The position numbers and the translations under genes were made by a program. Of a stretch of 64,000 nt of DNA, positions 4,296 through 57,443 are shown piece by piece. The first letter of the stretch is position 1; each line of letters begins with the position of its first letter. Location of the stretch: NCBI RefSeq assembly GCF_044324875.1, contig NZ_CP172185.1. One strand, 5' to 3'. The stretch is from Escherichia coli (GTDB taxonomy: Bacteria; Pseudomonadota; Gammaproteobacteria; Enterobacterales; Enterobacteriaceae). Below the pieces are notes generated by a model. It saw only the letters and a program-made list of their open reading frames with translations, was not told the DNA's origin and did not search any database.

Positions 4296-5552
4296 ATGAG
4301 TGGACTCAAACAAGAACTGGGGCTGGCACAGGGCATTGGCCTGCTATCGACGTCATTATTAGGCACCGGCGTGTTTGCCGTTCCTGCGTTAGCTGCACTG
4401 GTAGCAGGCAATAACAGCCTGTGGGCGTGGCCCGTTTTGATTATCTTAGTGTTCCCGATTGCGATTGTGTTTGCGATTCTGGGTCGCCACTATCCCAGCG
4501 CAGGCGGCGTCGCGCACTTCGTCGGTATGGCGTTTGGTTCGCGGCTTGAGCGAGTCACCGGCTGGCTGTTTTTATCAGTCATTCCCGTGGGTTTGCCTGC
4601 CGCACTACAAATTGCAGCCGGATTCGGCCAGGCAATGTTTGGCTGGCATAGCTGGCAACTGTTGTTGGCAGAACTCGGTACGCTGGCGCTGGTGTGGTAT
4701 ATCGGTACTCGCGGTGCTAGTTCCAGTGCTAATCTACAAACAGTTATTGCCGGACTTATCGTCGCGCTGATTGTCGCTATCTGGTGGGCGGGCGATATCA
4801 AACCTGCGAATATCCCCTTCCCTGCACCTGGTAATATCGAACTTACCGGGTTATTTGCTGCGTTATCAGTGATGTTCTGGTGCTTTGTCGGTCTGGAGGC
4901 ATTTGCCCATCTTGCCTCGGAATTTAAAAATCCAGAGCGTGATTTTCCTCGTGCTTTGATGATTGGTCTGCTGCTGGCAGGATTAGTCTACTGGGGCTGT
5001 ACGGTAGTCGTCTTACACTTCGACGCCTATGGTGAACAAATGGCGGCAGCAGCATCGCTTCCAAAAATTGTAGTGCAACTGTTCGGTGTAGGAGCGTTAT
5101 GGATTGCCTGCGTGATTGGCTATCTGGCCTGCTTTGCCAGTCTCAACATTTATATACAGAGCTTCGCCCGCCTGGTCTGGTCGCAGGCGCAACATAATCC
5201 TGACCACTACCTGGCACGCCTCTCTTCTCGTCATATCCCGAATAATGCCCTCAATGCGGTGCTCGGCTGCTGCGTGGTGAGCACGTTGGTGATTCATGCT
5301 TTAGGGATCAATCTGGACGCACTTATCATCTATGCCAATGGCATCTTTATTATGATTTATCTGTTATGCATGCTGGCAGGCTGTAAATTATTGCAAGGTC
5401 GTTATCGACTACTGGCGGTGGTTGGCGGGCTGTTATGCGTTCTGTTACTGGCAATGGTCGGCTGGAAAAGTCTCTATGCGCTGATCATGCTGGCGGGGTT
5501 ATGGCTGTTTCTGCCAAAACGAAAAACGCCGGAAAATGGCATAACCACATAA
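4296..5552 (+). CDS. yjeH: APC-family amino-acid exporter YjeH
   Basis: ORF 4236..5552; start taken at MSGLKQELGLAQGIGLLSTSLLGTGVFAV giving ~418 aa polytopic membrane protein; synteny. Confidence 0.8.
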   Translation: MSGLKQELGLAQGIGLLSTSLLGTGVFAVPALAALVAGNNSLWAWPVLIILVFPIAIVFAILGRHYPSAGGVAHFVGMAFGSRLERVTGWLFLSVIPVGLPAALQIAAGFGQAMFGWHSWQLLLAELGTLALVWYIGTRGASSSANLQTVIAGLIVALIVAIWWAGDIKPANIPFPAPGNIELTGLFAALSVMFWCFVGLEAFAHLASEFKNPERDFPRALMIGLLLAGLVYWGCTVVVLHFDAYGEQMAAAASLPKIVVQLFGVGALWIACVIGYLACFASLNIYIQSFARLVWSQAQHNPDHYLARLSSRHIPNNALNAVLGCCVVSTLVIHALGINLDALIIYANGIFIMIYLLCMLAGCKLLQGRYRLLAVVGGLLCVLLLAMVGWKSLYALIMLAGLWLFLPKRKTPENGITT

Positions 5553-21440: not shown

Positions 21441-23420
21441 TCAGGTGCCGATTATGCCGCCGTCGGCTTTTACGATAACGACAGTTGAGGAGCGCGGACG
21501 ACCAGCCTTATCGCCGTCAGGCCAGCTTGATACTGCCGTCGGATGCTGCGGATCGCTAAGCCCTTCGCTTGGCTCGCCAGGGTGCTGGATGTTAATAAAC
21601 AGCGTCCGGTTATCCGGAGTGAACGCGATGCCGGTGATTTCGCAGCCGCGCGGGCCGGTCAGGAAGCGGCGGAACTCATTGGTACCGGGGATCGTCGCCA
21701 CCATCTGGTTGTTGCCCATGCCTTTGTAATCTTTACTATTGATGGTTGATGACGACACGTCGGTCTGGATCCATAGCACGCCGCGGTGATCGAAGCTCAG
21801 GCCATCGGCGCTGCCGAATTCCGCCCCCTTCATGCTGCCTTTGGTTTCCGGTTTGTCCGTATCGGTGCGACCGCCCATCACAAGAATATCCCAGGCAAAC
21901 TGCAGCGCGGTCGGGTCACCGTTATGCTCCAACCAGTGAATGATGTGGCCGTAAACGTTTTTGGCGCGCGGGTTGGCCGCATCCACTGGCGCTTTTCCTT
22001 CCTTACCGCGATCGCTGTTGTTGGTGAGCGTGCAGTAAACGCTGCCGGCGTGATATGGATCGACCGCAATCCACTCCGGGCGGTCCATTTTAGTGGCCCC
22101 CACGGCGTCTGCCGCCAGACGGGTTTTAATCAACAGGTCGCCCTGGTTTTCAAACCCTTTACTGGCGTCGAGCCCATTTTGTCCGAACACCAGCGGTAGC
22201 CACTCGCCTTTGCCGTCGTCGTTAAATTTCGCCACGTACAGAGTGCCTTTTTCCAGCAGGTGCATGTTGGCTTTGCGATCCTGCGGGTTGAATTTTCCTT
22301 CCGAGACAAATTTATATATGTATTCGAATTTCTGGTCATCGCCCATATAGACCACAACGCGGTTATCCGGGGCAATTGTCACCGCTGCGCCTTCGTGTTT
22401 GATGCGACCAAGCGCGGTGTGCTTGCGCGGCACTGAATGCGGATCGTATGGATCGATTTCCACCACCCAGCCGAAGCGGTTCGGCTCGTTCGGCGTGGCG
22501 TCGACGCTGAACCTTTTATCCACTTCGTTCCAGCGGTAAGAGTCGTCGCTCCCGCTGATACCGTAACGTTTTTCCAGCGGGTTCATCTCTGCTTTTTTTA
22601 CGAAAATATCGGACCAGTTCTCTTCACACGTCAGATAGGTGCCCCACGGCGTAAATCCGTTGGCACAGTTCTGCATGGTGCCGAGAATGATTTCGCCTTT
22701 CGGATCGTCAACTGTTTGCATCAGTGGGTTATGCAGCGCCGGACCGGTGATTTTCATCGGCGTGTTAACGGTGATGCGGCGTGCGAAAGATGACGGGCGC
22801 ACCACTTCCCAGCCCAGGGGCACTTTTTTTACTTCAATGACCGACACGCCCATCGCGTTCTGGCCTTTAAGAGCTTTATCGGCGCTCCAGTTGGCATCGC
22901 CATCTTTAAACAGTAGACCGTTATCGATGTATTCATGGTTTATGGCAAGCAGGCCGTGATCGGAGCTGTTCCCGCCCTGCGGCAGGCTAAACCACGCCAT
23001 GCCGTCGTGGTGCATCCCGGCCTGCGCCGCCTGTTCTTCCGTGGTGTTGCTACCGTCGGTTTTAAAAACCGGCAGATTTCCGGCAATCCCGGTGGCGTCG
23101 CCCCATTTGTAGAAGGGCTTCGCGATGTATCCTTCCGGCACGATAACGGTATCTTCCGTGGAAACCGGCAGGCTGGTGAAACCGAGCGTCGTCGCTTTGC
23201 CGAGGTTACCGCTTGCTTTGGAGACCACTTTCGCCAGCGCGTTTTCCTGTTTCAGCAGAAATGGGAACGCTGCCGCGGCACCGGCGACCGTGCCGGCCTG
23301 TAACAGACGGCGGCGTGACAAATAAACTTCCGCCACCTGCGAAAACGCGCGGTTATCGCTCGGGTTACTGATTTCTTCACTATGCTCACGTTTGAATAAA
23401 GTTTTTAACGGTCTGCCCAT
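21441..23420 (-). CDS. Tat-secreted PhoX-like (DUF839-type) phosphatase
   Basis: 659 aa; twin-arginine signal SRRRLLQAGTVAGAAAAFPF; size and composition consistent with PhoX family; family call not verified. Confidence 0.5.
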   Translation of the reverse strand: MGRPLKTLFKREHSEEISNPSDNRAFSQVAEVYLSRRRLLQAGTVAGAAAAFPFLLKQENALAKVVSKASGNLGKATTLGFTSLPVSTEDTVIVPEGYIAKPFYKWGDATGIAGNLPVFKTDGSNTTEEQAAQAGMHHDGMAWFSLPQGGNSSDHGLLAINHEYIDNGLLFKDGDANWSADKALKGQNAMGVSVIEVKKVPLGWEVVRPSSFARRITVNTPMKITGPALHNPLMQTVDDPKGEIILGTMQNCANGFTPWGTYLTCEENWSDIFVKKAEMNPLEKRYGISGSDDSYRWNEVDKRFSVDATPNEPNRFGWVVEIDPYDPHSVPRKHTALGRIKHEGAAVTIAPDNRVVVYMGDDQKFEYIYKFVSEGKFNPQDRKANMHLLEKGTLYVAKFNDDGKGEWLPLVFGQNGLDASKGFENQGDLLIKTRLAADAVGATKMDRPEWIAVDPYHAGSVYCTLTNNSDRGKEGKAPVDAANPRAKNVYGHIIHWLEHNGDPTALQFAWDILVMGGRTDTDKPETKGSMKGAEFGSADGLSFDHRGVLWIQTDVSSSTINSKDYKGMGNNQMVATIPGTNEFRRFLTGPRGCEITGIAFTPDNRTLFINIQHPGEPSEGLSDPQHPTAVSSWPDGDKAGRPRSSTVVIVKADGGIIGT

Positions 23421-27748: not shown

Positions 27749-29833
27749 TTACGCCTGACCGGTGTCTCTGGTGACATATTCCGGAGCTCCGGAGAGAGTA
27801 AAGGTAACGCGATCATCGGCAGAAGCATCTCCATACTGCAGATGCCCGTCGTTGGGGATCATGGCCAGTTTGCCGTAATAGCGATACACATTGTATTCAT
27901 CCTGTGTATAGCCAAAGAAGGACTGATTATTCAGTTGTGAACCCGACAGGCTGACAAACTCGCTGGCAAGAAGATGACTTCCCGTATTATCCAGTTTGTT
28001 CGCGTCAATCAGCAGATTATTACCGGCCGAAATTCTGGCATCCCCCCCTGTTGCACCAACATCGACGCGTGTTGTGCCAGTCAGAAATTTCCGGGTGGCT
28101 CCCTTTTCAGTCGGAACGGCCCATGCCTCAAAACCACCACCGGCAGTACCGCTCCAGGACTTCACATAATATCCCCATCCATTTTCACCTAAATCGCCCA
28201 CTCTGACTGAAACAGAATTTACACCATCAGGTACTGCGACATTCTCAACCGGAATGTATGATTTTGTCTCATTTATACCCTCCCGCTGATTCAGTAAATG
28301 TCCGGTTCTGATGGTGATATCACCGCGGGTGGTTTCGATATTCCCGGAGGTATTAATCACTTCAGCATTCGCGGCACCACTGACATCTTTCTGCATCACC
28401 AGGCTGTAACCCGCCAGCATATCGCCGTGATGGTTCCGGATGGTGCTGGCAAACAGCGAGAGGTTATTGCCCGCATACAACAGTGCGGTGTTAATGACTG
28501 CCCCGGCGACCGTTAACACCAGACTACCCGTCGTGCCGGTAAAACCGTCGAGAGTGATATCTCCCCTGCTGGTCAGGCTGACGTCCCCGCCTGCCTGCAG
28601 GCTGCCGCTGGCATTCATCGCAATCCCGCTGCCGCTCAGTGCCGTGGTGCCGTTGCCGGCGGTCAACTGGCCATTGTTGGTCAGCCTGCCTGCAGCATTC
28701 AGCGTGATACCGTTGCCCTGCAATGTGGCGCCATTGGTAATATCACCCTGGCTGCTGACGGAGAGTTGTTTATTCGCGGCGATAACGCCCTGTGCGGTCA
28801 AACCACGTGTGAGCTTCAGCGTCAGGTTACCGAGTGCAACCAGCTGGCCCGCGCCGCTGAGCGAGACCATTTCAGCAAGCATATCACCGCCGCTGAACAC
28901 CTTCCCGCCGGCGTTGTTCAGGCTGTTCCCTTTTATTGTCAGGCCCTGATTACCCAGCAGCGTGCCGCTGTTGGTGATGGTCTGCGTGTTGACGTTCAGT
29001 TGTGCAGCCTGGAACAGGCCACGGTTGGTCAGACTGTTACCTGTGAGCGTTGCCTGATTCGCCGCCATCACAGTGCCATTACCGGCAAGCTTCGCCACGT
29101 TCAGCAGCAGGTCAGTGGCCTGTAGCCAGCCACTGCCACTGTAGTCCGGCGTGGTGAACGTCAGCTCACCGCCGGAAAGAATCTTGCCACTGTTGTGGGC
29201 CTGCGTTGCCGCGCTGAGCGTGGTTTTACCGTTGCCCTGAATGGTGCCGTCATTAGTCAGCACAGGTGCAGAAAGCGCTGATACGTTCTGACTGAGAAGC
29301 ACACCGCTGGTCTGGTTGGTCAGGGCATTCAGCAATGTAAGAGTCAGCCCGCTGTCGCCCTGCACACGACCTGAGTTGGTCAGCGAACTGGCGGTGATTC
29401 GGTTATCCGCCCCCTGAAGCTGCCCACTATTGCTGATGTCTCTGGCGTTGACGTTTAATGTACCGCCTGTCAGCATTTTACCGTGCTGTTGCAGATTACC
29501 ACTGAGTGTCACATTCAGGCTGTTAACACCACTGATTTCGCCACCGTTGCTGAGCGAATCACCATTCACTTCCAGCGTCTTCGCGCTGATTAATCCCTTG
29601 TTACCCAGCACTTTCCCGGTAAGGCGGGCATCGCCCAGGGCGGTAATTTTGCTGCCGGTGGCAGCAATAACATCGCCACTCAGGGTCAGAGCCAACTCCA
29701 GCGCACTCTGAACAGCACCGCTGCTGGTCAGGCTGCTGGCATCCAGAGTAATGTTCTGCCCCTGAATCCGGCCGCTGTTGGTCACATCTCCTGCGCTCAG
29801 CGTCAGCGAGTTCTGGCTCGATCCGCGCACCAC
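27749..29833 (-). pseudogene. Fragment of a large filamentous-haemagglutinin/CdiA-like repeat protein (two-partner-secretion exoprotein), truncated at both ends
   Basis: 694 aa of degenerate ~20-aa repeats rich in TLSG/LTNSG/IQGNG/NAL motifs; no signal peptide or TPS domain; 3' end abuts IS66 copy 1; 5' end abuts the GC-rich block. Confidence 0.6.
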
Positions 29834-43032: not shown

Positions 43033-45003
43033 TTACCACTGATAACGGGTATAAAGACTGACAGTTCGGCCTGAAAGCGGCACACCTTTGCCATTCATGG
43101 CAAGCTTGTTGAAGGCATTATCCAGAGTTACTGACGCCTCAAAGCCTTTAACACTTACAGGCTTATAAGACAGTGAAAAGGAATGTATGGCATAGCCAGC
43201 CTGATAGGAGTCGCCTTTTTTCACATGCGTGGCTGATGCTGAAAGTTCAGCACGCCATCCGGCATAAACGCCTCTATGACCAACAGGTATGCTGATGTCA
43301 CTGATAAGTGTGTCAGGATTGCCGGAGCCCAGCCATTCCCTGCTGCTGGCATCCATACTTTCCGTCCGGTTATAAGAAAGCACCCAGTCAACATAATCAG
43401 ACTGGTAATTTCCCTGCATATCCCATCCCCAGATACGGGCCCGGGATACATTATAAGAATAAGAACGCATCCGTTTCATATCCACGCGTGTGGCAATATA
43501 GTTTCTGGCATCCGTTCCGAAATATCCGCCTTTTAACTGCAGCCGGTCATTGTCTGTAAGCAGGCCATCCAGTTGAATACCTGCGCCAATCTCACGGGTG
43601 ATGTTATTTTCTGGTTTCAGATTAAGGTTAGGAACCCAGTAATTGGGTTTACCCTTGCGGTAAAAATGTACATCATCCCTGTACATTTCTGCCATTGTGG
43701 GCGCTCGGAATGCAGAGGATATGGAGCCGTACATCATCAGCCAGTCTGTCGGTGAGACTGAAATCGCCGCCCTTGGGGACAGGCGTTCGGCTTTCAGTTC
43801 TCCGGCACGGGGATTGAAGCTCTTGTACCGGTCATAGCGGGAACCGACGATAATGTTAACAGGGTAGCTTTTCATTGTCATTTCATCCTGGAAATACAAC
43901 GATGTAAAGTCAATATTTCCTTCCGGATATAGTGTGGCAGAGCCTTCTGGCTTCTGCTGCTGACGGTAATATTCAGCGCCATAACTTAACTGATGGGCTC
44001 CCGGAAAAATCAGAGTATGACTCCTGTTGACAACATTAACACCGGAGGTTCTGTTGTTTCTCCATTCTGCCGTTTTGTTGTGACCGTTTGTCTTGATAGT
44101 GATATCACTGAGATATAACGTTGACTGTACATTGATGAGGCTGTTATCCACAGGAGCGTACTGGTACCAGAACTGTACGTCATTTTGTACTGTTTTTCTG
44201 TCACGCAGGCCGCTGTCACCATGTGTCTGAGTGGGATTGCCCGGTTCAGTGGTGTTATTCCGGTAGAGACGCAAGCTGGCACCTGCTTTGTTACTGTCTG
44301 TTATACCGACAGAGCCTTTCGCAAACAGGGCTGCAGGTTTTTCCTTGTTAGGTGCGCGCTCACCATCACTTTGATAGATATTACCTCTTTTACGCATAAT
44401 GACAGAAAGGAGCGCATCTGTTTTTCCGGTTTTACCGAACCAGGTGAGCCCCGAGCCTGTGCTGTGGTCACCACTGGCAATATTTCCCCACAGACTTAAA
44501 CCGTTTGTCTCTCCGGGGGGAAGGAAATCTGCTGCATCGGCAGTTCTGAAGTCCACTACACCTCCCAGCCCGCCACTGCCGTACAGACTGGAGTTTGGCC
44601 CGCGGACAACTTCGATACGTTTGACAAGAGCCGGATCCAGATAAGTGCCACTGCTTTTTGCCATGTCACTAAGTTGGCGGACGCCGTCAACAAGAACAAG
44701 TACCCCGCTTTTGTCATAGCCGCGTAGATTAAAGGTCTGCCCATTGGTCCGTCCTGCACCAGTCTGGCTGAGACCGGCAACACCTTTCAGCATGCCGGCC
44801 GATGTAACCGCATTCTGACTCCACGGTGTGTCATTCGTGACGACACTGACCATCGACGGCGTTTCAAATACCGTGTTCTGATTTCCTGTCGCGACAATGG
44901 TGATTGTATCTTTAGCCATAGAAGAATGACTGGTCGCTGCCTGTAGTCCCACCGGGACTATAATTAATGTACAAATGACAGTTCTGATTACATTCATATA
45001 CAT
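43033..45003 (-). CDS. TonB-dependent outer-membrane receptor
   Basis: 656 aa; signal peptide; plug-domain TonB-box-like region DTITIVATGNQ; C-terminal ...TRYQW terminal aromatic. Confidence 0.8.
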   Translation of the reverse strand: MYMNVIRTVICTLIIVPVGLQAATSHSSMAKDTITIVATGNQNTVFETPSMVSVVTNDTPWSQNAVTSAGMLKGVAGLSQTGAGRTNGQTFNLRGYDKSGVLVLVDGVRQLSDMAKSSGTYLDPALVKRIEVVRGPNSSLYGSGGLGGVVDFRTADAADFLPPGETNGLSLWGNIASGDHSTGSGLTWFGKTGKTDALLSVIMRKRGNIYQSDGERAPNKEKPAALFAKGSVGITDSNKAGASLRLYRNNTTEPGNPTQTHGDSGLRDRKTVQNDVQFWYQYAPVDNSLINVQSTLYLSDITIKTNGHNKTAEWRNNRTSGVNVVNRSHTLIFPGAHQLSYGAEYYRQQQKPEGSATLYPEGNIDFTSLYFQDEMTMKSYPVNIIVGSRYDRYKSFNPRAGELKAERLSPRAAISVSPTDWLMMYGSISSAFRAPTMAEMYRDDVHFYRKGKPNYWVPNLNLKPENNITREIGAGIQLDGLLTDNDRLQLKGGYFGTDARNYIATRVDMKRMRSYSYNVSRARIWGWDMQGNYQSDYVDWVLSYNRTESMDASSREWLGSGNPDTLISDISIPVGHRGVYAGWRAELSASATHVKKGDSYQAGYAIHSFSLSYKPVSVKGFEASVTLDNAFNKLAMNGKGVPLSGRTVSLYTRYQW

Positions 45004-45809: not shown

Positions 45810-47423
45810 TTATTTATTGGTGAGTACTACGTTCCATGGCAGGAGTTCATCAACTCGGTTGGAAGGCCATTCCGGCAGTACGCTCAGGATATGGCGCAGA
45901 TACGCTTCCGGATCGATACCGTTCAGACGGCAGGTGCCGATCAGCCCGTACAACAGTGCTCCACGCTCGCCGCCGTGATCGCTGCCAAAGAACATAAAGT
46001 TTTTCTTTCCGAGACAGACTGCACGAAGCGCTCTTTCCGCAGCATTATTATCCGCCTCCGCCAGACCGTCATCACTGTAATAACAGAGGGCATCCCACTG
46101 ATTCAGTACATAGCTGAACGCTTCGCCCAGTCTGGATTTTTTCGACAGCGTACCATTCTTCTCCACCATCCATTCATGCAGCGACGTCAGTAACACTTTG
46201 CTTCGCTGCTGCCTGACGGCAAGACGCTCTGACTCCGCTAATCCCCGTATTTCATCCTCGATGGCGTACAGTTCACTGATTCGCTTCAGGGCTTCTTCTG
46301 CCGTCGCACTTTTGCTGCTGATGTATACATCGTGGATTTTTCGCCGGGCATGGGCCCAGCACGCAACTTCTGTCAGTGCACCACCTTCACGTTCTGCACT
46401 GAACAACCTGTCGTAACCTGTGAACGCATCCGCCTGCAGGATACCCCGGAAGGGGCGGAGGTGTTGCTCCGGGTGTTTCCCCTGCCGGTTCGGCGAGTAC
46501 GCGAACCAGACCGCTGGAGGAGATGACGAACCCACATTGCGATCATCCCGGACATACGTCCAGATACGCCCTGTTTTCGCCTTTTTCTGACCCGGTGCCA
46601 GTACCTTTACCGGTGTGTCATCAGTGTGAACCTTGCGGGTGTTCATTACATAACGGTACAGGGCATCATTCACCGGTGTCATTAACTGGCAGCACGCGTC
46701 AACCCAGTTGGAGAGTAAGGCCCGGCTCAGTTCGACACCCTGGCGGGCAAAGATTTCACTCTGACGATACAGTGGCAGATGTTCGCAGTATTTTCCCGTT
46801 AACACGCGGGCAAGTAATCCGGGGCCCGCGATACCACGCTCTATCGGGCGGGACGACGCCGGTGCTTCAACAATACAGTCACATTTTGTACAGGCTTTTT
46901 TTACCCGTTCTGTGCGGATCACTTTCAGGGCACTGCTCACCAGTTCCAGCTGTTCAGCGCTGACTTCCCCCAGATAATCCAGCTCACCGCCACACTCCGG
47001 GCAACAGCTTTCTTCTGGCTCCAGGCGGTGTATTTCACGGGGAAGGTGTGCCGGTAACGGACGACGATGGCGCGACTGTCGCAACTGGCGGGGAACCTGA
47101 GGATCGTCTTCCCGCCCACTGTAACGATCGCTGTCCTGTTCACGTTGTTTCAGCAGAGCCTCAGCCAGTTCAACTTCACGACGCAGTTTTTCAGAACGGG
47201 GACCGAACAGCATCCGGAGCAGTTTTTCTATCTGAGCCCGCAGATGTTCTATTTCCCGTTCATCTTCTTCGATCTTTTCTTCGGCACGTGTCAGTGCAGA
47301 GCGCAGGAAGGCTTCCCTCTCTTCAACCAGACTCAGTTGCTGGTCTTTCTGACGGAGGGCTTCAGCCTGCTCAGAGAGCAATCTTTCCAGCTCTGCGATG
47401 CGAATGAGGTATTTCTGACTCAT
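45810..47423 (-). CDS. tnpC: IS66-family transposase TnpC (copy 2)
   Basis: 537 aa; colinear with copy 1 TnpC but diverged. Confidence 0.85.
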   Translation of the reverse strand: MSQKYLIRIAELERLLSEQAEALRQKDQQLSLVEEREAFLRSALTRAEEKIEEDEREIEHLRAQIEKLLRMLFGPRSEKLRREVELAEALLKQREQDSDRYSGREDDPQVPRQLRQSRHRRPLPAHLPREIHRLEPEESCCPECGGELDYLGEVSAEQLELVSSALKVIRTERVKKACTKCDCIVEAPASSRPIERGIAGPGLLARVLTGKYCEHLPLYRQSEIFARQGVELSRALLSNWVDACCQLMTPVNDALYRYVMNTRKVHTDDTPVKVLAPGQKKAKTGRIWTYVRDDRNVGSSSPPAVWFAYSPNRQGKHPEQHLRPFRGILQADAFTGYDRLFSAEREGGALTEVACWAHARRKIHDVYISSKSATAEEALKRISELYAIEDEIRGLAESERLAVRQQRSKVLLTSLHEWMVEKNGTLSKKSRLGEAFSYVLNQWDALCYYSDDGLAEADNNAAERALRAVCLGKKNFMFFGSDHGGERGALLYGLIGTCRLNGIDPEAYLRHILSVLPEWPSNRVDELLPWNVVLTNK

Positions 47424-47453
47424 GACCGTTTTTATAATGCGGTCAGGAGTTTT

Positions 47454-47804
47454 TTACAACATTGTCAGTGAGTTACGGCTGGATGTTTTTGGCTGACGCC
47501 AGTCCAGCTTATCGAGGAGCATTGCCAGTTGCGAGCGGGTAATGGATACCTTGCCGTCACGTACCGCAGGCCAGATAAACTGGCCTTCCTCCAGGCGTTT
47601 GGTGAACAGGCACAGACCATCAGCATCAGCCCAAAGAATTTTGACGGTGTCACCCCGTCGGCCACGGAAGATAAACAGGTGACCGGAGAAGGGATTATCA
47701 TTCAGCACATGTTGTACCTGTTCTCCCAGTCCGTTGAAGGATTTACGCATATCGGTAACGCCGGCAACGAGCCAGATACGGGTACCTGATGGGAGTGAGA
47801 TCAT
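47454..47804 (-). CDS. tnpB: IS66 Orf2 (TnpB, copy 2)
   Basis: 116 aa; MISLPSGTRIWLVAGVTDMRKSFNGLGEQVQ. Confidence 0.85.
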   Translation of the reverse strand: MISLPSGTRIWLVAGVTDMRKSFNGLGEQVQHVLNDNPFSGHLFIFRGRRGDTVKILWADADGLCLFTKRLEEGQFIWPAVRDGKVSITRSQLAMLLDKLDWRQPKTSSRNSLTML

Positions 47805-48226
47805 CTTCCCCTCCCGGTCAGTTCACGGATCAACACCGTGAGCAGCTCTGGCGATGGATTTTCCAGCGTCATGTTACCGTGACGGAATTCCACCTTGCAG
47901 GAACTGGCACTGACTCTGGTCTGAGTGGAAGTGGATAAAGACGGCGCAATGGCCGCCACAGGTTCTTTCTGCTCATCCGGCGTTATTTCTACAGGTAATA
48001 ATTCAACGCCAGTGTCAGAAGAGGTCGTTACCGGAAGACGCCGCGAAACACGCCCTTCGTTCTGCCAGAGCCTGAGCCATTTGAAAATAACATTATCATT
48101 GACGCCATTTTCACGTGCAATCTGTGCAACACAAGCTCCAGGTTGTGATGCCAGTTCCACCATACGAAGTTTGAATTCATTCGAATAGTTTTTACGAGGT
48201 TCTTTTCGCCAGTCCTGTAATTCCAT
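47801..48226 (-). CDS. tnpA: IS66 Orf1 (TnpA, copy 2)
   Basis: 141 aa; overlaps tnpB start. Confidence 0.8.
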   Translation of the reverse strand: MELQDWRKEPRKNYSNEFKLRMVELASQPGACVAQIARENGVNDNVIFKWLRLWQNEGRVSRRLPVTTSSDTGVELLPVEITPDEQKEPVAAIAPSLSTSTQTRVSASSCKVEFRHGNMTLENPSPELLTVLIRELTGRGR

Positions 48227-48419
48227 ACTTAGATGTCCGTCTATATCAGATGGGCGTCTAAGTTACCAATTCTCGTCTGATGGCTACATACGGCGGTCAG
48301 TTTACGCTTACGGTAAACGCGCTTTGCATTCACTAACGGTAGTCCTTCATTTAGGGACTGCCGCCTGAGTATCGCCCAGAACACGGCTTACCGGGGCTAT
48401 TCCTTGTCCGAAGGTAACA

Positions 48420-48700
48420 AGGGCACATGCGCTATCCATTTTCGCGATTGCGCATACTCCACCACTTCTTTGAGGATCTAAACTTCCATGGTTTTTTACC
48501 CAGCAAGAGCTGTAACTCTTTTATTTGTTTTATAGCGGCAGGCAGTTCTGAGGCAGGAACGACACCCTCTCCTGAAGCAACAGCAGTGAGACTTCCTTCC
48601 AGAGATTGTTTTTCCACTTAAACAACAGGCAGGGCTGAATACAACGCAAACGCGCCACATGTGACACCGCCATGCCAGGCTCCATTGTCTGCTGAATAAT
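48420..48700 (-). mobile_element. IS2-like orfA remnant (upstream half of the element split by IS66 copy 2)
   Basis: ...[36 protein letters not shown]... parallels IS2 InsC. Confidence 0.55.
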
Positions 48701-49896
48701 GCCAATTTTTTCCTGAGGAGTTTTACGTTTACGAAGCTACAGCCCCGGCAAAGTTCCAGTCATCTCAAAATTAGAACCAGTGTCAGACATATATCCAAGC
48801 CTGTCTCTTATTTTAAGATACATCCACTATCTGGCGTTTCAAGGGGCTGGTCCAGCTACAAATATTATTGAAAGAAATTTTTATGAAAACGAAGCTTTTT
48901 ACGATTTCTATCGGCATTGATGTAATATAGAAGAGTTATATAAATTATTCAAATCAAATTTTCTATTGAATATTTTCATTCACAGAGTGAGAAAGATGTA
49001 AAATAAAAATACAGGCTCATATATTATTACTTAACCTTACATGGATATCCTGAAATGACATTAATTATTAAGATAATAACGTTTTCATCGGTAGTAGTAG
49101 AAATAAACAAAATTTTAATTTCAAAAACTGCTTGTTTCTCGTAGTGAGGTACTTGTCTTTACTGATTCGGGTAACAGGAAAACATTTAAAATCATTCTGT
49201 TGCGCTCTTTCTGAGAGGCTGATTGCAAAATGGCATCTGAATCGATCGCAGTTGTATGACTCAGCGAGTAAGGCCAGGGAGGTGTTACCCACGAAAATAT
49301 GTACGGCCCAGAACGCGCTGGAACTCTTTTGATGCTCCAGCAAGAACTTAACCGAATGCCATTGGTACGCTGCCCCACAGAAAATTCCGTCACTAATGGC
49401 GGTAGCCGACAGATTCACATGGCGTTACCGCAGTAAACCAAGATGGATCTTGATTGCGTCCTCAACAGACAACATATCTGCTTTGGACAACGAGCCAATA
49501 TGTGTTTTGAGACAGGACTTATCCGCCGCCATAATCTGCTCTACAATCGCTTTGCTGCTCTGACACCTACGGTCACAACAGCCTCACTTGGATACACTCG
49601 CTCTGTGTTACTGGTCAGAGGAACGACGACTACTCGAGCGAGGTTCCTGTTTGCTGCGTCATTGCTCACGATCACTGCCGGACATGTCTTGCGGATTTCA
49701 CTGTCAACAGCAGGATCAAATTCAATCCACCACGTCTCACCTGTGCCGTCACTGCTCTGTCATCTTTCTAACACTTTACTGTCTAACACATGTAATAAAA
49801 AAGTTATTTTTCTGCAATTCGGGCATGATATTTAATCCCACGAGCATGAAACGTGTGAATTCGCTCATCAGGTACAACAAGCAAGAGAGATAAACG

Positions 49897-51213
49897 ATGA
49901 AACCGTTACATTATACAGCTTCAGCACTGGTGCTCGGACTGACGTTAATGGGGAATGCACAGGCAGTGACGACCATTCCGTTCTGGCACTCTATGGAAGG
50001 GGAACTGGGTAAAGAGGTGAATTCTCTGGTCCAACGTTTTAACGCCGAAAACCCGGATTACAAAATTATACCGACTTATAAAGGCAACTACGAAGAGAGT
50101 TTAAGTGCGGGGATCGCAGCATTTCGTACCGGTAACGCTCCGGCTATTTTGCAGGTTTATGAAGTTGGCACCGCCACCATGATGGCGTCGAAAGCCATTA
50201 AACCGGTGTATGACGTGTTTAAAGAGGCGGGGATTAACTTTGATGAGTCGCAGTTTGTGCCGACGGTTTCAGGCTACTACTCCGACAGCAAAACGGGACA
50301 CTTACTCTCCCAGCCGTTCAACAGCTCGACTCCTGTTCTCTATTACAACAAAGATGCTTTCAAGAAAGCAGGATTAGACCCGGAACAGCCGCCGAAAACC
50401 TGGCAGGATCTGGCGGACTATGCCGCGAAACTGAAAGCCTCCGGTATGAAGTGCGGCTACGCCAGCGGCTGGCAGGGCTGGATCCAACTGGAAAACTTTA
50501 GCGCCTGGAACGGTCTGCCGTTTGCCAGCAAAAACAACGGCTTTGACGGCACAGATGCGGTGCTGGAGTTCAACAAGCCGGAGCAGGTGAAACACATCGC
50601 CATGCTCGAAGAGATGAACAAGAAAGGCGATTTCAGCTACGTCGGGCGTAAGGATGAATCCACCGAGAAGTTCTATAACGGTGATTGCGCAATGACGACT
50701 GCCTCTTCTGGTTCTCTTGCCAGCATTCGCGAGTACGCCAAATTCAACTACGGCGTAGGCATGATGCCTTACGACGCTGACGCGAAAGATGCACCACAAA
50801 ACGCCATTATCGGCGGAGCCAGCCTGTGGGTGATGCAGGGCAAAGATAAAGAAACGTATACCGGCGTGGCGAAGTTCCTCGACTTCCTCGCGAAGCCAGA
50901 AAATGCTGCCGAGTGGCATCAGAAAACCGGTTATCTGCCAATCACCAAAGCGGCGTATGACCTGACCCGTGAGCAGGGCTTTTATGAGAAAAACCCAGGG
51001 GCGGATATCGCGACACGTCAGATGCTGAACAAACCGTCGTTACCGTTCACCAAAGGACTACGTCTGGGCAACATGCCGCAGATCAGAGCGATTGTGGATG
51101 AAGAGCTTGAGAGCGTGTGGACCGGTAAGAAGACGCCACAGCAGGCGCTGGATACCGCCGTTGAGCGTGGGAATCAGTTACTACGCCGCTTTGAGAAATC
51201 GACGAAGTCTTAA
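49897..51213 (+). CDS. sn-glycerol-3-phosphate-type ABC transporter periplasmic binding protein (UgpB-like), orphan
   Basis: 438 aa; signal peptide [23 protein letters not shown]; close UgpB-like sequence; no adjacent permease or ATPase genes. Confidence 0.75.
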
Positions 51214-51289
51214 CCAGTGTAATGTCGGATACGTTTCGCCTATCTGAGCTAACATCGCGTGTAGGCCGATGTGATTGACATCTTCCTCC

Positions 51290-52330
51290 TTACGGCATCA
51301 ACGTTCCAGACTGAGATGTACCCAGTTCCCTGGTGGAGAAGTCAGTCATGAATATTAATCGTATTGGTTTCGATCTTGCCGAAAAATGTTTTTCAAATCC
51401 ACGGCGTTGATCACAATGAATAGTGGTACGGAGAAAAACGCTGAGCCCTCCCCACATGATGACGTTTTTCTCCGGGCTTTCTCCCTGCCTCATCAGCATC
51501 GAAGTCTGTGGCTCTTCCCATTCTGGGCACGGGAACTCATTCCGTATGGGGCCTACCGTGCGCATTATTCCGTAGAAACTTGTCAAATCTTATCTCAAAG
51601 GTAACAAAAACGACGCTAATAATGCAGCTGCCATCTGTGAGGCCGTCAGCAGGCCCGGCATGCGATTTGTTGTTTTCATATCGGAATCCCAGCAGACGTT
51701 ACAGGAAGAATACCGGGTCCGGGCCAGAATCATCCGCGAGCGAACGGCGTTGCGTAATGAAATCCGGGGGCTGTTGAGTGAATTTGGTCTGCTGCTGCCT
51801 GTGGGGATAAGGCACGTGCGTAAAATCCAGCAGGGAATACTGCCCAGGGGCAGTGGAATGACCCTTCATCCGTTTGTTGTGCGAACTGTCAGAGTAAAAT
51901 GAACTCATATCGTCTCATGACCACCGTCTTCATGAGGCTGCAAGGGATGATATCCGTATTAAACAGCTGATGGAGCTAAAAGGAGTTGGTCCCACAACAG
52001 CCTGTGCGCTGGTTGCCTGTATCGGTAATGCACATGATTTTAAAAAGGGACGGCAACTGGCAGCCTGGCTGGGCTGACGCTATCACAATACCGCAGCGGC
52101 TGAATGTCGAAGCTGGGCAGGATAACAAAAGCCGGTGATTCGTATCTGCGAATGCTTCTGGTTCAGGGGGCTCGTTCAGTACTGATTGGTGCTGAGAAAA
52201 GGACTGACTCATTCAGTCGTTGGGTCTGTTCACTGGTTGAACGCAGAGAATACTGACGCGCTGTTGTGGCCATCGCCGCCAGAAAGGTAAGGCTGTGCTG
52301 GGCATCATGTCATTACGGTGATGATTTCAG
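51290..52330 (+). pseudogene. IS110-family transposase remnants (frameshifted)
   Basis: ...MELKGVGPTTACALVACIGNAHDFKKGRQLAAWLG...SYLRMLLVQGARSVL... in several frames. Confidence 0.5.
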
Positions 52331-52707
52331 GCTGTATTCAGCCAGCTAAAGCACGCAGCAACCGTATGACTATCTGATCTGCAACTCGTTGATGATAAAG
52401 TGTTAGACCCCGTGAGGTATATCTGATTATTGTACAGGATATACGTATCCGCTTAACGAACAAGAGCCTCACTCGCGTCTTTCATCTGGGCCGAATAGAT
52501 GAGATTCATCATGGTTGTTTATAGTACCGTCGTCTCTCCCCTTTATTTTTACAGAAAAGCAAACAGAAACCATAAATACCGGCGTTGACATGGCGGGGAA
52601 GCCGGCAACGGCTATCCCTACCGTAATCATAATATTTCTGTCATTTCTGCTCCCTACAATGACGTTAGTTTTACTTCTGGGCGATAACAACGAAAGGAGA
52701 GTATGAC

Positions 52708-54051
52708 ATGCACAACTCCAAAATCCGGCTGGCTATACTGGTTGGCTGCATGGCTCTGAGCGCCAACCTGTGGGCCAAAGCGCAGCCGGTGCAGGCAACG
52801 CTGGCCGGGCATGCAATTCTGCCGGCAAAATCCGCTGTTTCAACACCGAAGGATGCGCCGGGCGATTTGCAACAGAGCGGCAAATACACCAGCGGCAAAC
52901 GCGTCACCGAGCTGGGCAGCGTGGCGGGCAAATCCGCAGAACGCCTGACAGGACTCAGCCTGCCGATCAATGGTCAGCCGTTGCAGGGCCACTCAGGTAT
53001 CAAACACATGCCCGACGGTACCTATTGGGTGCTGACTGACAATGGCTTCGGCAGCAAAGCCAACTCCCCGGACGCCATGCTGTACCTCAACCAATACAAG
53101 ATAGATTTCAAAGACGGCTCGGTAGTACCGATGAAGACGCTGTTCCTGCATGATCCGGATAAAAAGGTGCCGTTCCACATCATCAACGAGAGCACCGAAC
53201 TACGCTATCTGACCGGCAGCGATTTTGATCCGGAAAGCTTCCAGTTTTCCGACGATGCCTTATGGATCGGTGATGAGTTCGGTCCTTACCTGATCAAGAC
53301 CGACCTGAACGGCAAGGTGCTGGCGGTGTTCGACACAGAAGTGGACGGTAAGGTGGTTAAATCGCCGGACAACCCGACGCTGACTCTACCTAGCGCTCCG
53401 GACGGTAAGCTGAACTTCCAGGTGGCGCGTTCCAAAGGCTTTGAAGGCATGGCCATCTCGCCGGACGGCAGTAAGCTGTATCCGCTGCTGGAAGGGGCAT
53501 TGTGGGACGGTGAGCAGTTCGAGAACGTTGACGGAAAACGCTACCTGCGTGTGCTGGAGTTCGATGCCAAACAGCAGGCCTGGACTGGTCGCAGCTGGCA
53601 GTACGTGCTGGAAGACAACCAGAACGCCATCGGCGACTTCAATATGATAGATGATACCCACGGACTGGTGATCGAGCGTGATAACGGCGAAGGCACGGCG
53701 GATAAAGCCTGCGTCGCCGGCGCGCCGACCAACAACTGCTTCAGTCAAGTAGCCAGGTTCAAACGGGTGTATAAAATTGCTTTCTCGGACACTAACGTCG
53801 GAAAACCTGTCGAAAAACTGGGCTATATTGACCTGATGAAGATTCAGGATCCGAACAAGCTGGCACGCAAGCCGCTGAACGACGGTGTGCTGACCTTCCC
53901 GTTCTTCACCATCGAGAACGTGGATGTGGTTGACACTAACCACATCATCGTAGGCAACGATAATAACTTCCCGTTTTCCTCCAGCCGCTGGCCTAATATG
54001 GCGGATGACAACGAGTTTATTCTACTGGATGTGAAGGATTTTCTGAAGTAG
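52708..54051 (+). CDS. Secreted phytase-like / esterase-like-activity-of-phytase family protein
   Basis: 447 aa; signal peptide; motifs WVLTDNGFG and SKGFEGMAISPDGSKLY typical of this beta-propeller family; family call unverified. Confidence 0.45.
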   Translation: MHNSKIRLAILVGCMALSANLWAKAQPVQATLAGHAILPAKSAVSTPKDAPGDLQQSGKYTSGKRVTELGSVAGKSAERLTGLSLPINGQPLQGHSGIKHMPDGTYWVLTDNGFGSKANSPDAMLYLNQYKIDFKDGSVVPMKTLFLHDPDKKVPFHIINESTELRYLTGSDFDPESFQFSDDALWIGDEFGPYLIKTDLNGKVLAVFDTEVDGKVVKSPDNPTLTLPSAPDGKLNFQVARSKGFEGMAISPDGSKLYPLLEGALWDGEQFENVDGKRYLRVLEFDAKQQAWTGRSWQYVLEDNQNAIGDFNMIDDTHGLVIERDNGEGTADKACVAGAPTNNCFSQVARFKRVYKIAFSDTNVGKPVEKLGYIDLMKIQDPNKLARKPLNDGVLTFPFFTIENVDVVDTNHIIVGNDNNFPFSSSRWPNMADDNEFILLDVKDFLK

Positions 54052-54207
54052 GGGGAAGAGCATCTTACGATACTCCTCGCTAATTTAAAAACGAACGGTG
54101 CTGAGCACCGTTTTTAATCACCTCGCCAGAACCTACCAGAATATGATGTTGGTTTATTATCACTGATTCATGGGGAGCACCCAGCGCTTCGGCGGTTTTT
54201 TATGTCT

Positions 54208-55032
54208 TTAAAGCAGTAGCGGTAGGGTCGCGCTGGCTGTTTTCTGGCTCACCTCGCTGTACTGGTCATCCAGCGCAATCAGCGATGTGGTGAGTAGCTC
54301 TACCAACAGCATCACTCCCACTTTGGCAGTCAGCGCGCCGGCACTCAAGGGTCCTTCCGGTTTGGCCGCGACCAGTTGAATATCACTCAGCGAAGCTAAC
54401 GGACTGCGCGGTGTATTACTCAGCGCCAGTACACGCACACCTTGCTTACGCGCTAGTTTTACGACATGCAGCAGATCGCGCGTGGATCCAGAACTGGAAA
54501 TCGCCACCACGAACGTGTTTTTACTAAGTGTTGTGGCGTTCATGGCAGCACGATGCATATCGCTGAACAATTGTGCGGGTTTCCCCAGACGCAGGAGTTT
54601 ATAATGTAAATACTCCCCCAGAATGGCACTGGCTGCTACGCCATAAATCTGCACTGACTGAGCCTGATGCAGTGCAAGCGCGGCTGCTTCCAGCAAGGCT
54701 CTGTCGAGTAATTTTGCTGTGTCCTGTATTGCTTGCACGGATTCATTGACCACATTGTCAATCTCATCACCGCCGTGCTCTACAAACTGTACTTGTCGGA
54801 GATCGAGTGCCAGCGCCATTTTGAATTCGTTATAGCCCTTACACCCAAGCGTTCGGCACAGACGTGTGACGCTAGCCTCGCTGGTGCCGCTTTCACGCGC
54901 AAGTTCGGTAATCGTCAGGTAGACAACTTTTGCCGGATCGCTAAGTACAAACTCTCCCAGCTTCTGTTGTGTTCGGCTATATCCATCAACGCTCTGGCGC
55001 AATCTCAGCAGCAGGTTTTCATTTTCTGACAT
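54208..55032 (-). CDS. RpiR/MurR-family transcriptional regulator (HTH + SIS domain)
   Basis: 274 aa; N-terminal HTH (LTITELARESGTSEASVTRLCRTLGCKGYNEFK), C-terminal SIS-like region. Confidence 0.75.
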   Translation of the reverse strand: MSENENLLLRLRQSVDGYSRTQQKLGEFVLSDPAKVVYLTITELARESGTSEASVTRLCRTLGCKGYNEFKMALALDLRQVQFVEHGGDEIDNVVNESVQAIQDTAKLLDRALLEAAALALHQAQSVQIYGVAASAILGEYLHYKLLRLGKPAQLFSDMHRAAMNATTLSKNTFVVAISSSGSTRDLLHVVKLARKQGVRVLALSNTPRSPLASLSDIQLVAAKPEGPLSAGALTAKVGVMLLVELLTTSLIALDDQYSEVSQKTASATLPLLL

Positions 55033-55197
55033 GTAAAATCCTTAATGCGTTTATCTGTTGATAGTGTGACGGAAAGGAGGGGATTGATGCCAGACATTTT
55101 AAAAAAGTATGATCGACTTCTTAGATTTTGATGGTGATTTTTATTTATAAGAATAATTATGGTAAAAATTTTCATCAAAAATCGAGGAGATGATAAA

Positions 55198-56754
55198 ATG
55201 ATGCAAATGTTTAGCGGCGCTTCATCGGGGGGATGGTTTGAAAAAGCGCAGCGGTTCGGAAAATCCTTCATGCTGCCGATTGCGGTATTGCCCGCAGCAG
55301 GGCTGTTATTAGGGATTGGTGGCGCGTTGTCAAATCCAAACACGTTGACGGCTTATCCGTTTTTAGATGCCGACTGGTTGCAGGCAATATTCACAATCAT
55401 GACCAGCGCAGGTTCTATTGTGTTTGCCAACCTGTCGGTACTCTTTGCAGTCGGCGTCGCCGTGGGGCTGGCGAAATCGGATAAAGGCACTGCCGGGCTT
55501 GCGTCATTGCTGGCGTTTCTGGTGATGAATGCCACCATCAACGCCTTATTAACGCTCAACGGAACGCTGGCGCACAAGAACCCCGCTTCAGTTGGCCAGG
55601 GGATGACGCTTGGTATTCAGACACTGGAAACTGGTGTGTTTGGTGGGGTGGTGATTGGTCTCGTCACCTGCACTTTACATAGCCGTTTCAATAAAGTCTC
55701 ACTACCTCAGTTTCTCGGTTTTTTTAGTGGTTCTCGTTTTGTACCCATTATCAGCTCCCTTGCCGCGATAGTAGTGGGTGCGGTTATGACGGTGGTGTGG
55801 CCGCATTTCCAGAAACTCATTTTTGGACTGGGCGACCTGGTGGATGCGACGGGCTATCTGGGGACGCTGTTGTACGGCTTCATCCTGCGTATGCTCGGTC
55901 CACTGGGTTTACACCATATCTTTTATTTGCCGTTCTGGACGACGGCGCTGGGCGGCAGTGAAATCGTCAACGGCCAGTTGGTTGAAGGTACGCAGCGGAT
56001 TTTCTTTGCCCAACTTGCCGATCCGAATACGCAGCAGTTCTACGCGGGTACCGCTCGCTTTATGTCCGGGCGCTTTATCACCATGATGTTTGGCCTGCTT
56101 GGCGCATGTCTGGCAATGTACCATACTGCAAAGCCGGAGAATAGAAAGGTTGTCGCCGGACTACTTTTGTCGGCAGCCCTGACCTCTTTCCTGACGGGAA
56201 TCACTGAGCCTGTTGAGTTCTCCTTCCTGTTTGTCGCGCCCGTATTATACGTAATTCACGCCTTCTTCGATGGTCTGGCGTTTATGGTCGCCCATATTTT
56301 ACATATCACTATTGGGCAAACCTTTTCGGGCGGGCTTATCGATTTCCTTCTCTTCGGCGTGTTGCAGGGGGAAGCTAAAACAAACTGGATGTATGTCCCC
56401 ATAGTGGGAATACCGTGGTTCTTCCTTTACTACTTTACTTTCCGCTATTTGATTAACCGCTTTGGCTGGCTGACGCCGGGGCGTGAGAACGTAACCCAGG
56501 TTGAATCCGGCCAGCCTCAGAGTGAACGCGCAGCGGCAGTCATTGCCGGGCTGGGAGGCAAAGAGAATCTGGAAGAGGTGGACTGTTGCGCCACGCGCCT
56601 GCGCGTGACGGTTAAAGAGAGCAGTAAGGTAGATGAAGCTGCGCTGAAAGTGGCCGGAGCGCGTGGCGTGATTATTCGCGGCAACGGCGTTCAGGTGATT
56701 TATGGCCCTCATGTCACCATCATTAAAAACGAAGTCGAAGAGATTTTATCGTAA
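55198..56754 (+). CDS. PTS glucose-family EIICB component
   Basis: ORF 55159..56754; polytopic EIIC followed by EIIB with conserved Cys ([15 protein letters not shown]). Confidence 0.8.
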
Positions 56755-57443
56755 TGAAAACTGTACTGGATTCCCTGAAAGGTAAATTAATCGTCTCCTG
56801 TCAGGCTCTGGAAAATGAGCCTCTACATAGTCCGTTTATTATGTCACGTATGGCGCTGGCGGCAGCACAAGGTGGTGCTGCAGGTATCCGTGCCAACAGC
56901 GTGGCGGATATTAGTGCTATCAAAGAGATTGTCTCCCTTCCGATGATAGGGATTATCAAACGCGATTACCCTGGCAGTGAGGTGTTTATCACGGCCACTC
57001 TCCGGGAAGTGGATGAGCTGATGACCGTTGAGCCGGAAATTATTGCCCTGGATGCTACTGCGCGCCCGCGCCCTGGTGGTCAGACGCTGGAAGAACTGGT
57101 CACGCAGATCCGCGCTCGCTACCCGTCCATACTTCTGATGGCAGATATAGCAACAGTAGAAGAGGCAGTGACAGCTGAACGTCTGGGTTTTGACTGTGTG
57201 GGCACTACGCTCTACGGCTATACCGCAGAAACTGCCAGGCATGTGCTGGCGGAAAATGACTGTGGATTCTTACGTGAGGTCCTGAAAGCGGTCAGCGTTC
57301 CGGTCGTGGCGGAAGGGAATGTCGACACCCCGGAGTGCGCCGCACGTTGCCTGACATTAGGCGCTCATACCGTGGTGGTTGGGGGGGCAATCACTCGTCC
57401 GCAGCAGATAACGACACGCTTTATTGCAGCGATCGCCTCGTAA
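56754..57443 (+). CDS. nanE: N-acylmannosamine-6-phosphate 2-epimerase (NanE-like)
   Basis: 229 aa; [48 protein letters not shown] typical NanE N-terminus; start overlaps PTS stop. Confidence 0.8.

Follow-up and report, generated by a model that had tools for sequence, protein, structure and literature searches.

How does a gene for a periplasmic binding protein come to stand without its transporter genes, beside a gene for a putative exported phytase-like protein, and what could such a pair do for its host? The question is raised by a 64,000-nucleotide stretch of Escherichia coli DNA (contig NZ_CP172185.1 of assembly GCF_044324875.1), referred to below as the window. It carries an intact extra copy of ugpB, which encodes the sn-glycerol-3-phosphate (G3P)/glycerophosphodiester periplasmic binding protein (49897..51213, + strand, 438 aa), and, after a gap of 1,494 bp between the two open reading frames (ORFs), a gene of the PF13449 family (52708-54051, + strand) for which the name phy is used here. 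The explanation that we regard as reasonably probable is a mosaic assembled by insertion sequences (ISs), in which an extra ugpB driven by PhoB would feed the UgpAEC transporter of the host, and phy would take part in the periplasmic breakdown of organophosphates together with the phosphatase PhoX.

The island protein scores 932.6 bits against the equivalog model NF008211 (cutoff 411), matches the crystallised E. coli UgpB (PDB 4aq4) with E=5e-282 and is 97.3% identical to UgpB of E. coli K-12 (b3453; PDB 4AQ4/6X84), with which it shares its length and a near-identical signal peptide. At the DNA level, the coding sequence is 95.1% identical to that of K-12, with 12 amino-acid differences located at precursor positions 12, 16, 42, 45, 58, 67, 68, 114, 276, 371, 381 and 398. 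The G3P-contact residues Glu66 and Trp169 (mature numbering; precursor 89 and 192), which have been singled out for the G3P site of E. coli UgpB (10.1101/529602), are unchanged. Judged by its sequence, the gene thus encodes a true UgpB and not merely the UgpB-like protein noted in an earlier, sequence-only reading of the window. The synonymous divergence from K-12 (dS) amounts to 0.197 and dN/dS to 0.07, which implies strong purifying selection on this ugpB allele before its capture.

The same reading had described the gene as lacking ugpA, ugpE and ugpC, and this description, like the positions given for both ORFs, is borne out. DNA homology to the K-12 ugp locus, as delimited by BLAST, is restricted to window positions 49736-51268 (93.5% identity) and stops 55 bp past the ugpB stop codon, and none of the genes that follow ugpB in K-12 (ugpA, ugpE, ugpC and ugpQ) lies downstream of the island copy; this isolation is a trait of the locus rather than of the protein. 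It had also been proposed to look for a chromosomal ugp operon elsewhere that would distinguish a paralogue from a replacement. Since ugpAEC is present in 5,421-5,424 of the 5,426 complete E. coli genomes, the island ugpB is an additional paralogue and not a replacement.

The reason for the loss of the transporter genes can be read from the 3′ boundary of the ugp fragment. Alignment with K-12 shows that the first 55 bp of the ugpB-ugpA spacer are retained (51214..51268, + strand) and end in the left half of a repetitive extragenic palindromic (REP) element (…GCGTGTAGGCCG); identity breaks at GGCCG inside the REP, where K-12 goes on with GATAAGCG…. At this very point begins a decayed IS110-family insertion sequence of 1,335 bp (51269..52603, + strand, according to the RefSeq annotation), whose transposase pseudogene (~51348-52349) is frameshifted and contains internal stops. 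The non-coding 3′ end of the remnant (~250 bp, 52350-52603) is 91% identical to an intact plasmid-borne element of the same family, and it is this homology, covering the 3′ half, that sets its right end. The left end is common to a related copy in strain E2348/69, which likewise abuts …GCGTAGGCCG, and both in the window and in E2348/69 the left junction falls at GTAGGCCG of the REP. Among the 5,426 E. coli genomes, none yielded an intact version of exactly this element, and no RNA family was recognised by Rfam in its non-coding 3′ end or anywhere in the scanned region 48000-58000.

Site-specific insertion into REPs is a known property of IS110-family elements, IS621 among them (PMC1525189, PMC11208160). 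The remnant resembles these REP-targeting elements in the position of its left end at the REP, in its IS110-family transposase and in its long non-coding end, but it differs from them in that the transposase is broken and that the two flanks come from different REPs. To the right of the IS there is neither the other half of the REP nor ugpA. Flanks that do not derive from the same REP imply a rearrangement, and the nature of the right-hand sequence indicates that it was this rearrangement at the IS that removed ugpAEC. Thus, ugpB is an orphan because the end of the foreign ugp fragment falls within the spacer REP, precisely where a REP-targeting IS110 element begins. The course of events was as follows: a 1.5-kb foreign ugp piece comprising the PhoB-box promoter array, the intact ugpB and 55 bp of the spacer was captured; a REP-targeting IS110 element inserted into the spacer REP, and a rearrangement at that place dropped ugpAEC, the IS bringing ugpB and phy next to each other.

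The fragment has retained its regulatory region (49736..49896, + strand), as defined by the alignment with the K-12 livF-ugpB spacer and by the limits of BLAST homology. The homology begins 161 bp before the ugpB ATG and 10 bp upstream of the first Pho box, so that a phased array of 11-bp Pho-box half-sites at ~49746-49818 (-151 to -96) is preserved collinearly with the K-12 array and with matching half-site scores (12, 11, 9, 10, 9 and 9 out of 14). The only Pho-box score of at least 12/14 in the entire window belongs to this array. These values were obtained by half-site scoring, which replaced a strict 18-mer consensus allowing at most three mismatches; the latter gave zero matches in the window and proved too stringent, as the authentic ugpB boxes themselves fail it. 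The livF-proximal part of the K-12 regulatory region is missing from the island copy, and an upstream cAMP-CRP (cyclic AMP receptor protein) promoter of ugp, reportedly described by Kasahara et al. in 1991, would fall within this missing part.

The state of the fragment bears on the possibility that the ugpB copy is inert hitch-hiking debris that has not yet decayed, with phy playing a role unrelated to phosphate, be it that of some other hydrolase, a cyclase or a binding propeller. The break spares the complete Pho-box array together with an intact ORF, and the exact UgpB protein occurs in 846 blocks of the assembly collection, always intact, which speaks against debris; as for phy, the Pho-box enrichment near its orthologues and the domain fusions of its relatives, both described below, point to phosphate metabolism. 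This alternative is therefore unlikely, though it deserves to be taken seriously.

As regards the origin of the fragment within the IS-assembled mosaic, it is only 90-95% identical to all E. coli chromosomal ugpB alleles (a DNA divergence of ~5%), and a plasmid search revealed no plasmid carrying the island allele. Together with the dS value, these results suggest that the donor was probably a related Escherichia-like species. A separate observation concerns the transporter genes: in 661 E. coli records, ugpAEC is only 90-95% identical to that of K-12, and hence markedly divergent ugp alleles circulate within E. coli.

The association of ugpB with phy was traced in other genomes. In all eight distinct contexts that were read, the gene for the exact island UgpB protein is followed by the IS110 remnant and phy, never by ugpA. 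Outside E. coli, phy stands alone in bacterial genomes and its surroundings vary: among ~90 loci, no ugp gene was found near it, and its neighbours show only generic ABC-transporter similarity (25-30%) to UgpA, UgpE and UgpC. As phy occurs elsewhere without ugp neighbours, the ugpB–phy adjacency is peculiar to E. coli and was produced by the IS110 element. On a Salmonella enterica plasmid (L005/L006, 8001-10052), a 78%-identical phy is followed by a DUF2756 gene whose product is 69% identical to K-12 YhhA, encoded next to ugpQ. This yhhA-like gene was considered as a hint that ugpB and phy had once been neighbours in the donor; the idea was rejected as unsupported, no locus having ugpB, ugpQ or yhhA near phy.

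Once formed, the unit moves as a whole. The segment pemK'-ugpB-IS110'-phy is bracketed by inverted IS1 copies at different chromosomal sites (L104 and L106, 3445-10024), one such unit lying beside a pheU-type integrase gene and the other beside hyp/gss genes. A search for a target-site duplication flanking the IS1-bracketed unit revealed none, so composite transposition is unproven. The Escherichia fergusonii plasmid pHNCF11W-130kb (L096, 4377-6550) bears an IS1-flanked piece consisting of the last ~620 bp of the IS110 remnant and phy. This piece is 99.8% identical to window 51980-54153, which indicates that the island module has moved onto an IncHI1B plasmid in another species.

A PhoX-like gene had been reported elsewhere in the window, and it is indeed there: a gene for a PhoX-family alkaline phosphatase (21441..23420, - strand; PF05787, 554 bits) lies 29 kb from phy. 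The family matches of UgpB, phy and PhoX are all much stronger than chance would yield. Three plasmid backbones from E. coli and Escherichia albertii carry a 93% allele of phy in convergent orientation to a PhoX gene ~275 bp away (L097, 4094-7691; L098 and L099, 3594-7194): the IncF plasmid pRM14721, an IncI-gamma/K1 plasmid of E. albertii and one of type IncFIA/FIB/FIC. The plasmid PhoX gene has 93.5% nucleotide identity to that of the window. The equal divergence (~93%) of both genes from their window copies suggests that phy and PhoX travelled as a mobile pair which was later split within the island. The older partner of phy is PhoX, not ugpB.

These data also bear on the proposal of the sequence-only reading that the island had repeatedly acquired organophosphate-scavenging functions, that is, that ugpB, the phytase-like gene and PhoX were gained in several independent events under selection. 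All three genes do lie within one island, and ugpB and phy remain joined in several contexts, in some cases between IS1 copies. However, the adjacency and equal divergence of phy and phoX on plasmids suggest one acquisition followed by a split, the truncation of the ugp locus at an IS target site suggests an accidental capture, and phy elsewhere is unlinked to ugp genes. Hence, the phosphate theme is partly right, sustained by the Pho boxes, the fusions and the pairing with PhoX, while repeated independent acquisition under selection is hardly to be favoured: ugpB arrived through an insertion-sequence accident, and phy and PhoX probably arrived together.

Is phy itself under the control of phosphate? 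The promoter region of the gene (52604..52707, + strand) was delimited from the sequence as a conserved block, which is also found in Serratia, in the E. coli and E. albertii plasmid alleles and in the Salmonella plasmid copy. It contains a Pho-box-like 18-mer, TCATAATATTTCTGTCAT, at 52627-52644, in which the proximal half-site CTGTCAT is perfect and the distal half matches at 3 of 7 positions; a -10 hexamer, TACAAT (52655-52660), follows 10 bp past the proximal half-site. A spacing of 10 bp between the Pho box and the -10 hexamer is that of the phoA and pstS promoters. Across Proteobacteria, Pho-box-like repeats occupy the -35 position of phy orthologues, and in a Providencia orthologue there are three 11-bp boxes in tandem. 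Among 70 upstream regions of phy orthologues, a match of at least 11/14 was found in 22 and of at least 10/14 in 40, clustered at -60 to -100, the rates in shuffled sequences being 0.7% and 5%, respectively. On the opposite strand, only 2 and 8 of the 70 regions reach these thresholds (Fisher p=7e-6 and 1e-8). Pho control of the copy of phy in the window is therefore regarded as likely from these patterns. Besides, the stretch between ugpB and phy has no predicted terminator on the + strand, and read-through into phy from the Pho promoter of ugpB would be possible; a G+C-rich terminator-like hairpin was detected by the consensus scan farther downstream, between the convergent phy and rpiR genes (54094..54112).

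The product of phy is a protein of 447 aa. Its N-terminus (MHNSKIRLAILVGCMALSANLWAKA) looks like a Sec-type signal peptide, and the rest is assigned to the PF13449 'phytase-like' beta-propellers: the match to this model ('Esterase-like activity of phytase') scores 207 bits (cutoff 27.6) and is the only Pfam match at E<=0.001, with no hit to PF02333 (beta-propeller phytase), PF05787 (PhoX) or PF03009 (GDPD). There is no match to any NCBIfam model, and neither a sequence search nor a family profile search found a relative in the PDB, phytases included. Compared with its orthologues phy is of full length, and these are 60-92% identical to it across alpha-, beta- and gamma-Proteobacteria, the closest (92%) being that of Serratia bockelmannii. 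AlphaFold yields a confident beta-propeller (pLDDT 95.4, pTM 0.92), for which Foldseek found only generic WD40-like propellers in the PDB (TM ~0.3). The family has a conserved set of residues comprising D111, N112, D149, R166, D172, D174, E176, E190, E246, E262, E323, D325, K352, E403, N417-N420, R427 and E436, and of these D111, D149, R166, D172, E323, D325 and R427 are invariant in 63 sequences, phy included. No conserved His or Cys occurs in the family; such an Asp/Glu/Asn/Arg set devoid of His and Cys suggests a metal-dependent site of the Ca2+ type.

Thus, the second gene of the pair, earlier characterised as encoding a secreted phytase-like protein, does have the position, the PF13449 domain and the apparent signal peptide that this description implies, but it is not a recognisable phytase. 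No assayed stand-alone member of PF13449 was found in the searched literature, and 'phytase' is here a label, not a demonstrated activity; likewise, the name 'glycerophosphodiester phosphodiesterase' given to some phy orthologues stems from multidomain relatives. That phy might nevertheless be a genuine phytase, freeing phosphate from phytate in the intestine of birds that feed on grain, is hinted at by the Pfam name, by the enrichment of the gene in poultry isolates and by the beta-propeller fold with its many conserved acidic residues. Set against the lack of a PF02333 match, this appears very improbable.

A function in phosphate scavenging is suggested instead by the company that the domain keeps. 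All seven long PF13449 relatives that were examined are fused to phosphoester hydrolase domains (GDPD in 6, PhoX in 2, PhoD in 1 and Exo_endo_phos in 1). PF13449 proteins are also among the most strongly induced by phosphorus starvation or the most abundantly secreted in Nodularia (PMC9846622) and in a diatom (PMC7283521, PMC6617621). The Nodularia proteins NSP_RS02895 and NSP_RS03145, which are multidomain cyanobacterial GDPD/phytase-like proteins, share with phy the PF13449 domain and are induced by phosphorus limitation (PMC9846622), their fusions linking the domain to phosphodiester hydrolysis; in contrast to them, phy is a stand-alone domain of 447 aa lacking GDPD, PhoX, PhoD and RTX modules. 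With PhoX (PF05787) and the Bacillus beta-propeller phytase (PF02333), phy has in common that it would be an exported beta-propeller with conserved acidic, presumably metal-binding residues and a Pho-regulated context, and PhoX is further connected to it as a gene neighbour on plasmids and as a domain fused in long PF13449 relatives. The Pho boxes of orthologues, the domain fusions and the plasmid pairing with PhoX link phy to phosphate scavenging. Another PF13449 gene, orf34 of the SRL island of Shigella flexneri, also lies beside an IS66 element in a tRNA-associated island (PMC6980539), whereas in the window phy is joined to ugpB by an IS110 remnant.

How might the two products act together? 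Upon limitation of inorganic phosphate (Pi), PhoB would switch on the retained promoter of the extra ugpB, and the additional UgpB would load G3P and glycerophosphodiesters onto the chromosomal UgpAEC, raising the dosage of the binding protein. PhoB would probably also activate phy, whose product, most likely either a phosphoesterase that depends on a metal or the partner of such an enzyme, would work alongside PhoX in the periplasm.

Several points weigh against this scheme. That the island UgpB would dock on the host UgpAE is assumed solely because it is 97% identical to the host's own protein, and the expression of ugpB and phy as well as the biochemical activities of their products are predictions. 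The Pho box of the window's own phy totals 10/14, with only one good half-site, a score expected by chance ~0.5 times per kb per strand. The solved folds closest to phy are those of glutaminyl cyclase and YjiK, which are not phosphatases; in sequence and profile searches phy resembles neither PhoX nor any protein of solved structure, and hhalign of its family against the PhoX of the window gave a probability of 0.6%, that is, no relation. Finally, all island copies are ~99.8% identical, so their intactness reflects recent spread and not proven selection.

A bolder version of the scheme would have stand-alone PF13449 proteins form a hitherto unrecognised, widely conserved class of Pho-regulated periplasmic metal-dependent phosphodiesterases, which would convert diesters, glycerophosphodiesters for example, to G3P or monoesters, and would make the ugpB–phy unit, with PhoX elsewhere in the island, a selected portable kit of enzyme and binding protein feeding UgpAEC. 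In this strong form the idea is improbable.

Still another role for the extra UgpB has to be weighed, that of additional chaperone capacity in the periplasm, responsive to bile and independent of transport, in strains associated with the gut or with poultry. G3P-free E. coli UgpB has chaperone activity, and its overexpression leads to bile resistance (reviewed in PMC8144458); an orphan copy would need no transporter for such a task, and many strains with the segment were isolated from chickens or, in humans, from the gut or extraintestinal sites. On the other hand, the retained promoter is a Pho promoter, so that expression would need Pi limitation or the reported induction by bile, and the host already has a ugpB. 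The chaperone role is thus considered improbable, and loading of the host transporter by a PhoB-driven UgpB is the reading retained here.

UgpB is fully known, and phy is a member of a known, uncharacterised family. Annotations of both already exist in hundreds of genomes, phy being annotated identically by RefSeq in 228 E. coli genomes, and for the biology of E. coli this is a small, already-annotated accessory module. What is new is the REP/IS110 explanation of the orphan ugpB, the evidence that stand-alone PF13449 proteins are a conserved family associated with Pho boxes, and the mobile pair formed by phy and phoX. The locus illustrates clearly how a regulated gene for a binding protein can be cut off from its transporter by a REP-targeting IS110 element. 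The stand-alone PF13449 family (60-90% identical across alpha-, beta- and gamma-Proteobacteria) is an accessible candidate for a step that is missing from the recycling of organophosphates in bacteria, because it combines Pho-box-like promoters and fusion or pairing with GDPD, PhoX and PhoD with no assayed activity in the searched literature.

The left part of the window is core chromosome (…dsbD, yjdC/dicD, tRNA-Phe) running into an integrase-bearing island; the ugpB–phy segment thus sits in a pheU-associated E. coli genomic island. Of the 5,426 complete E. coli genomes, 185 contain the 6-kb region 48300-54300 (~99.8% identity, coverage of 80% or more), the segment being present in ~3-4% of E. 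coli genomes; many of the carriers are chicken isolates or human isolates of extraintestinal or gut origin. On the left, the module is bounded by a fragment of a PemK/MazF toxin gene (49541..49696, - strand), located by mapping the RefSeq annotation of a 99.8%-identical locus onto the window with an offset of +10501. Unlike its K-12 counterpart, the island ugpB lies between this fragment and the IS110 remnant. The pemK fragment accompanies ugpB in other genomes as well, with a PF02452 gene at the same place in loci L102-L107.

On the right, phy is followed by rpiR, a PTS (phosphotransferase system) EIICB gene and a nanE-like gene. Directly downstream of phy, this set (54208-57443) encodes an RpiR-family regulator (- strand), a glucose/maltose-type PTS EIICB protein (+ strand) and a NanE-like N-acetylmannosamine-6-phosphate epimerase (+ strand), that is, an accessory amino-sugar uptake cluster; in one related genome, the PTS gene downstream of phy is frameshifted. 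Farther along lies virulence-type island cargo comprising genes for an MliC-type inhibitor of c-type lysozyme (57948-58286, + strand), a sigma-like helix-turn-helix protein (58643-59098, - strand) and a YadA-like trimeric autotransporter adhesin (59160-60473, - strand). Upstream of the module, a gene for a TonB-dependent heme/hemoglobin receptor (43033-45003, - strand; TIGR01785, 413 bits) is followed by a complete IS66-family element with tnpA, tnpB and tnpC (45810-48226, - strand). Finally, a 694-aa ORF with a filamentous-haemagglutinin repeat (27749-29833, - strand; PF05594) is possibly a fragment of an exoprotein of the two-partner-secretion or contact-dependent inhibition (CDI) type.

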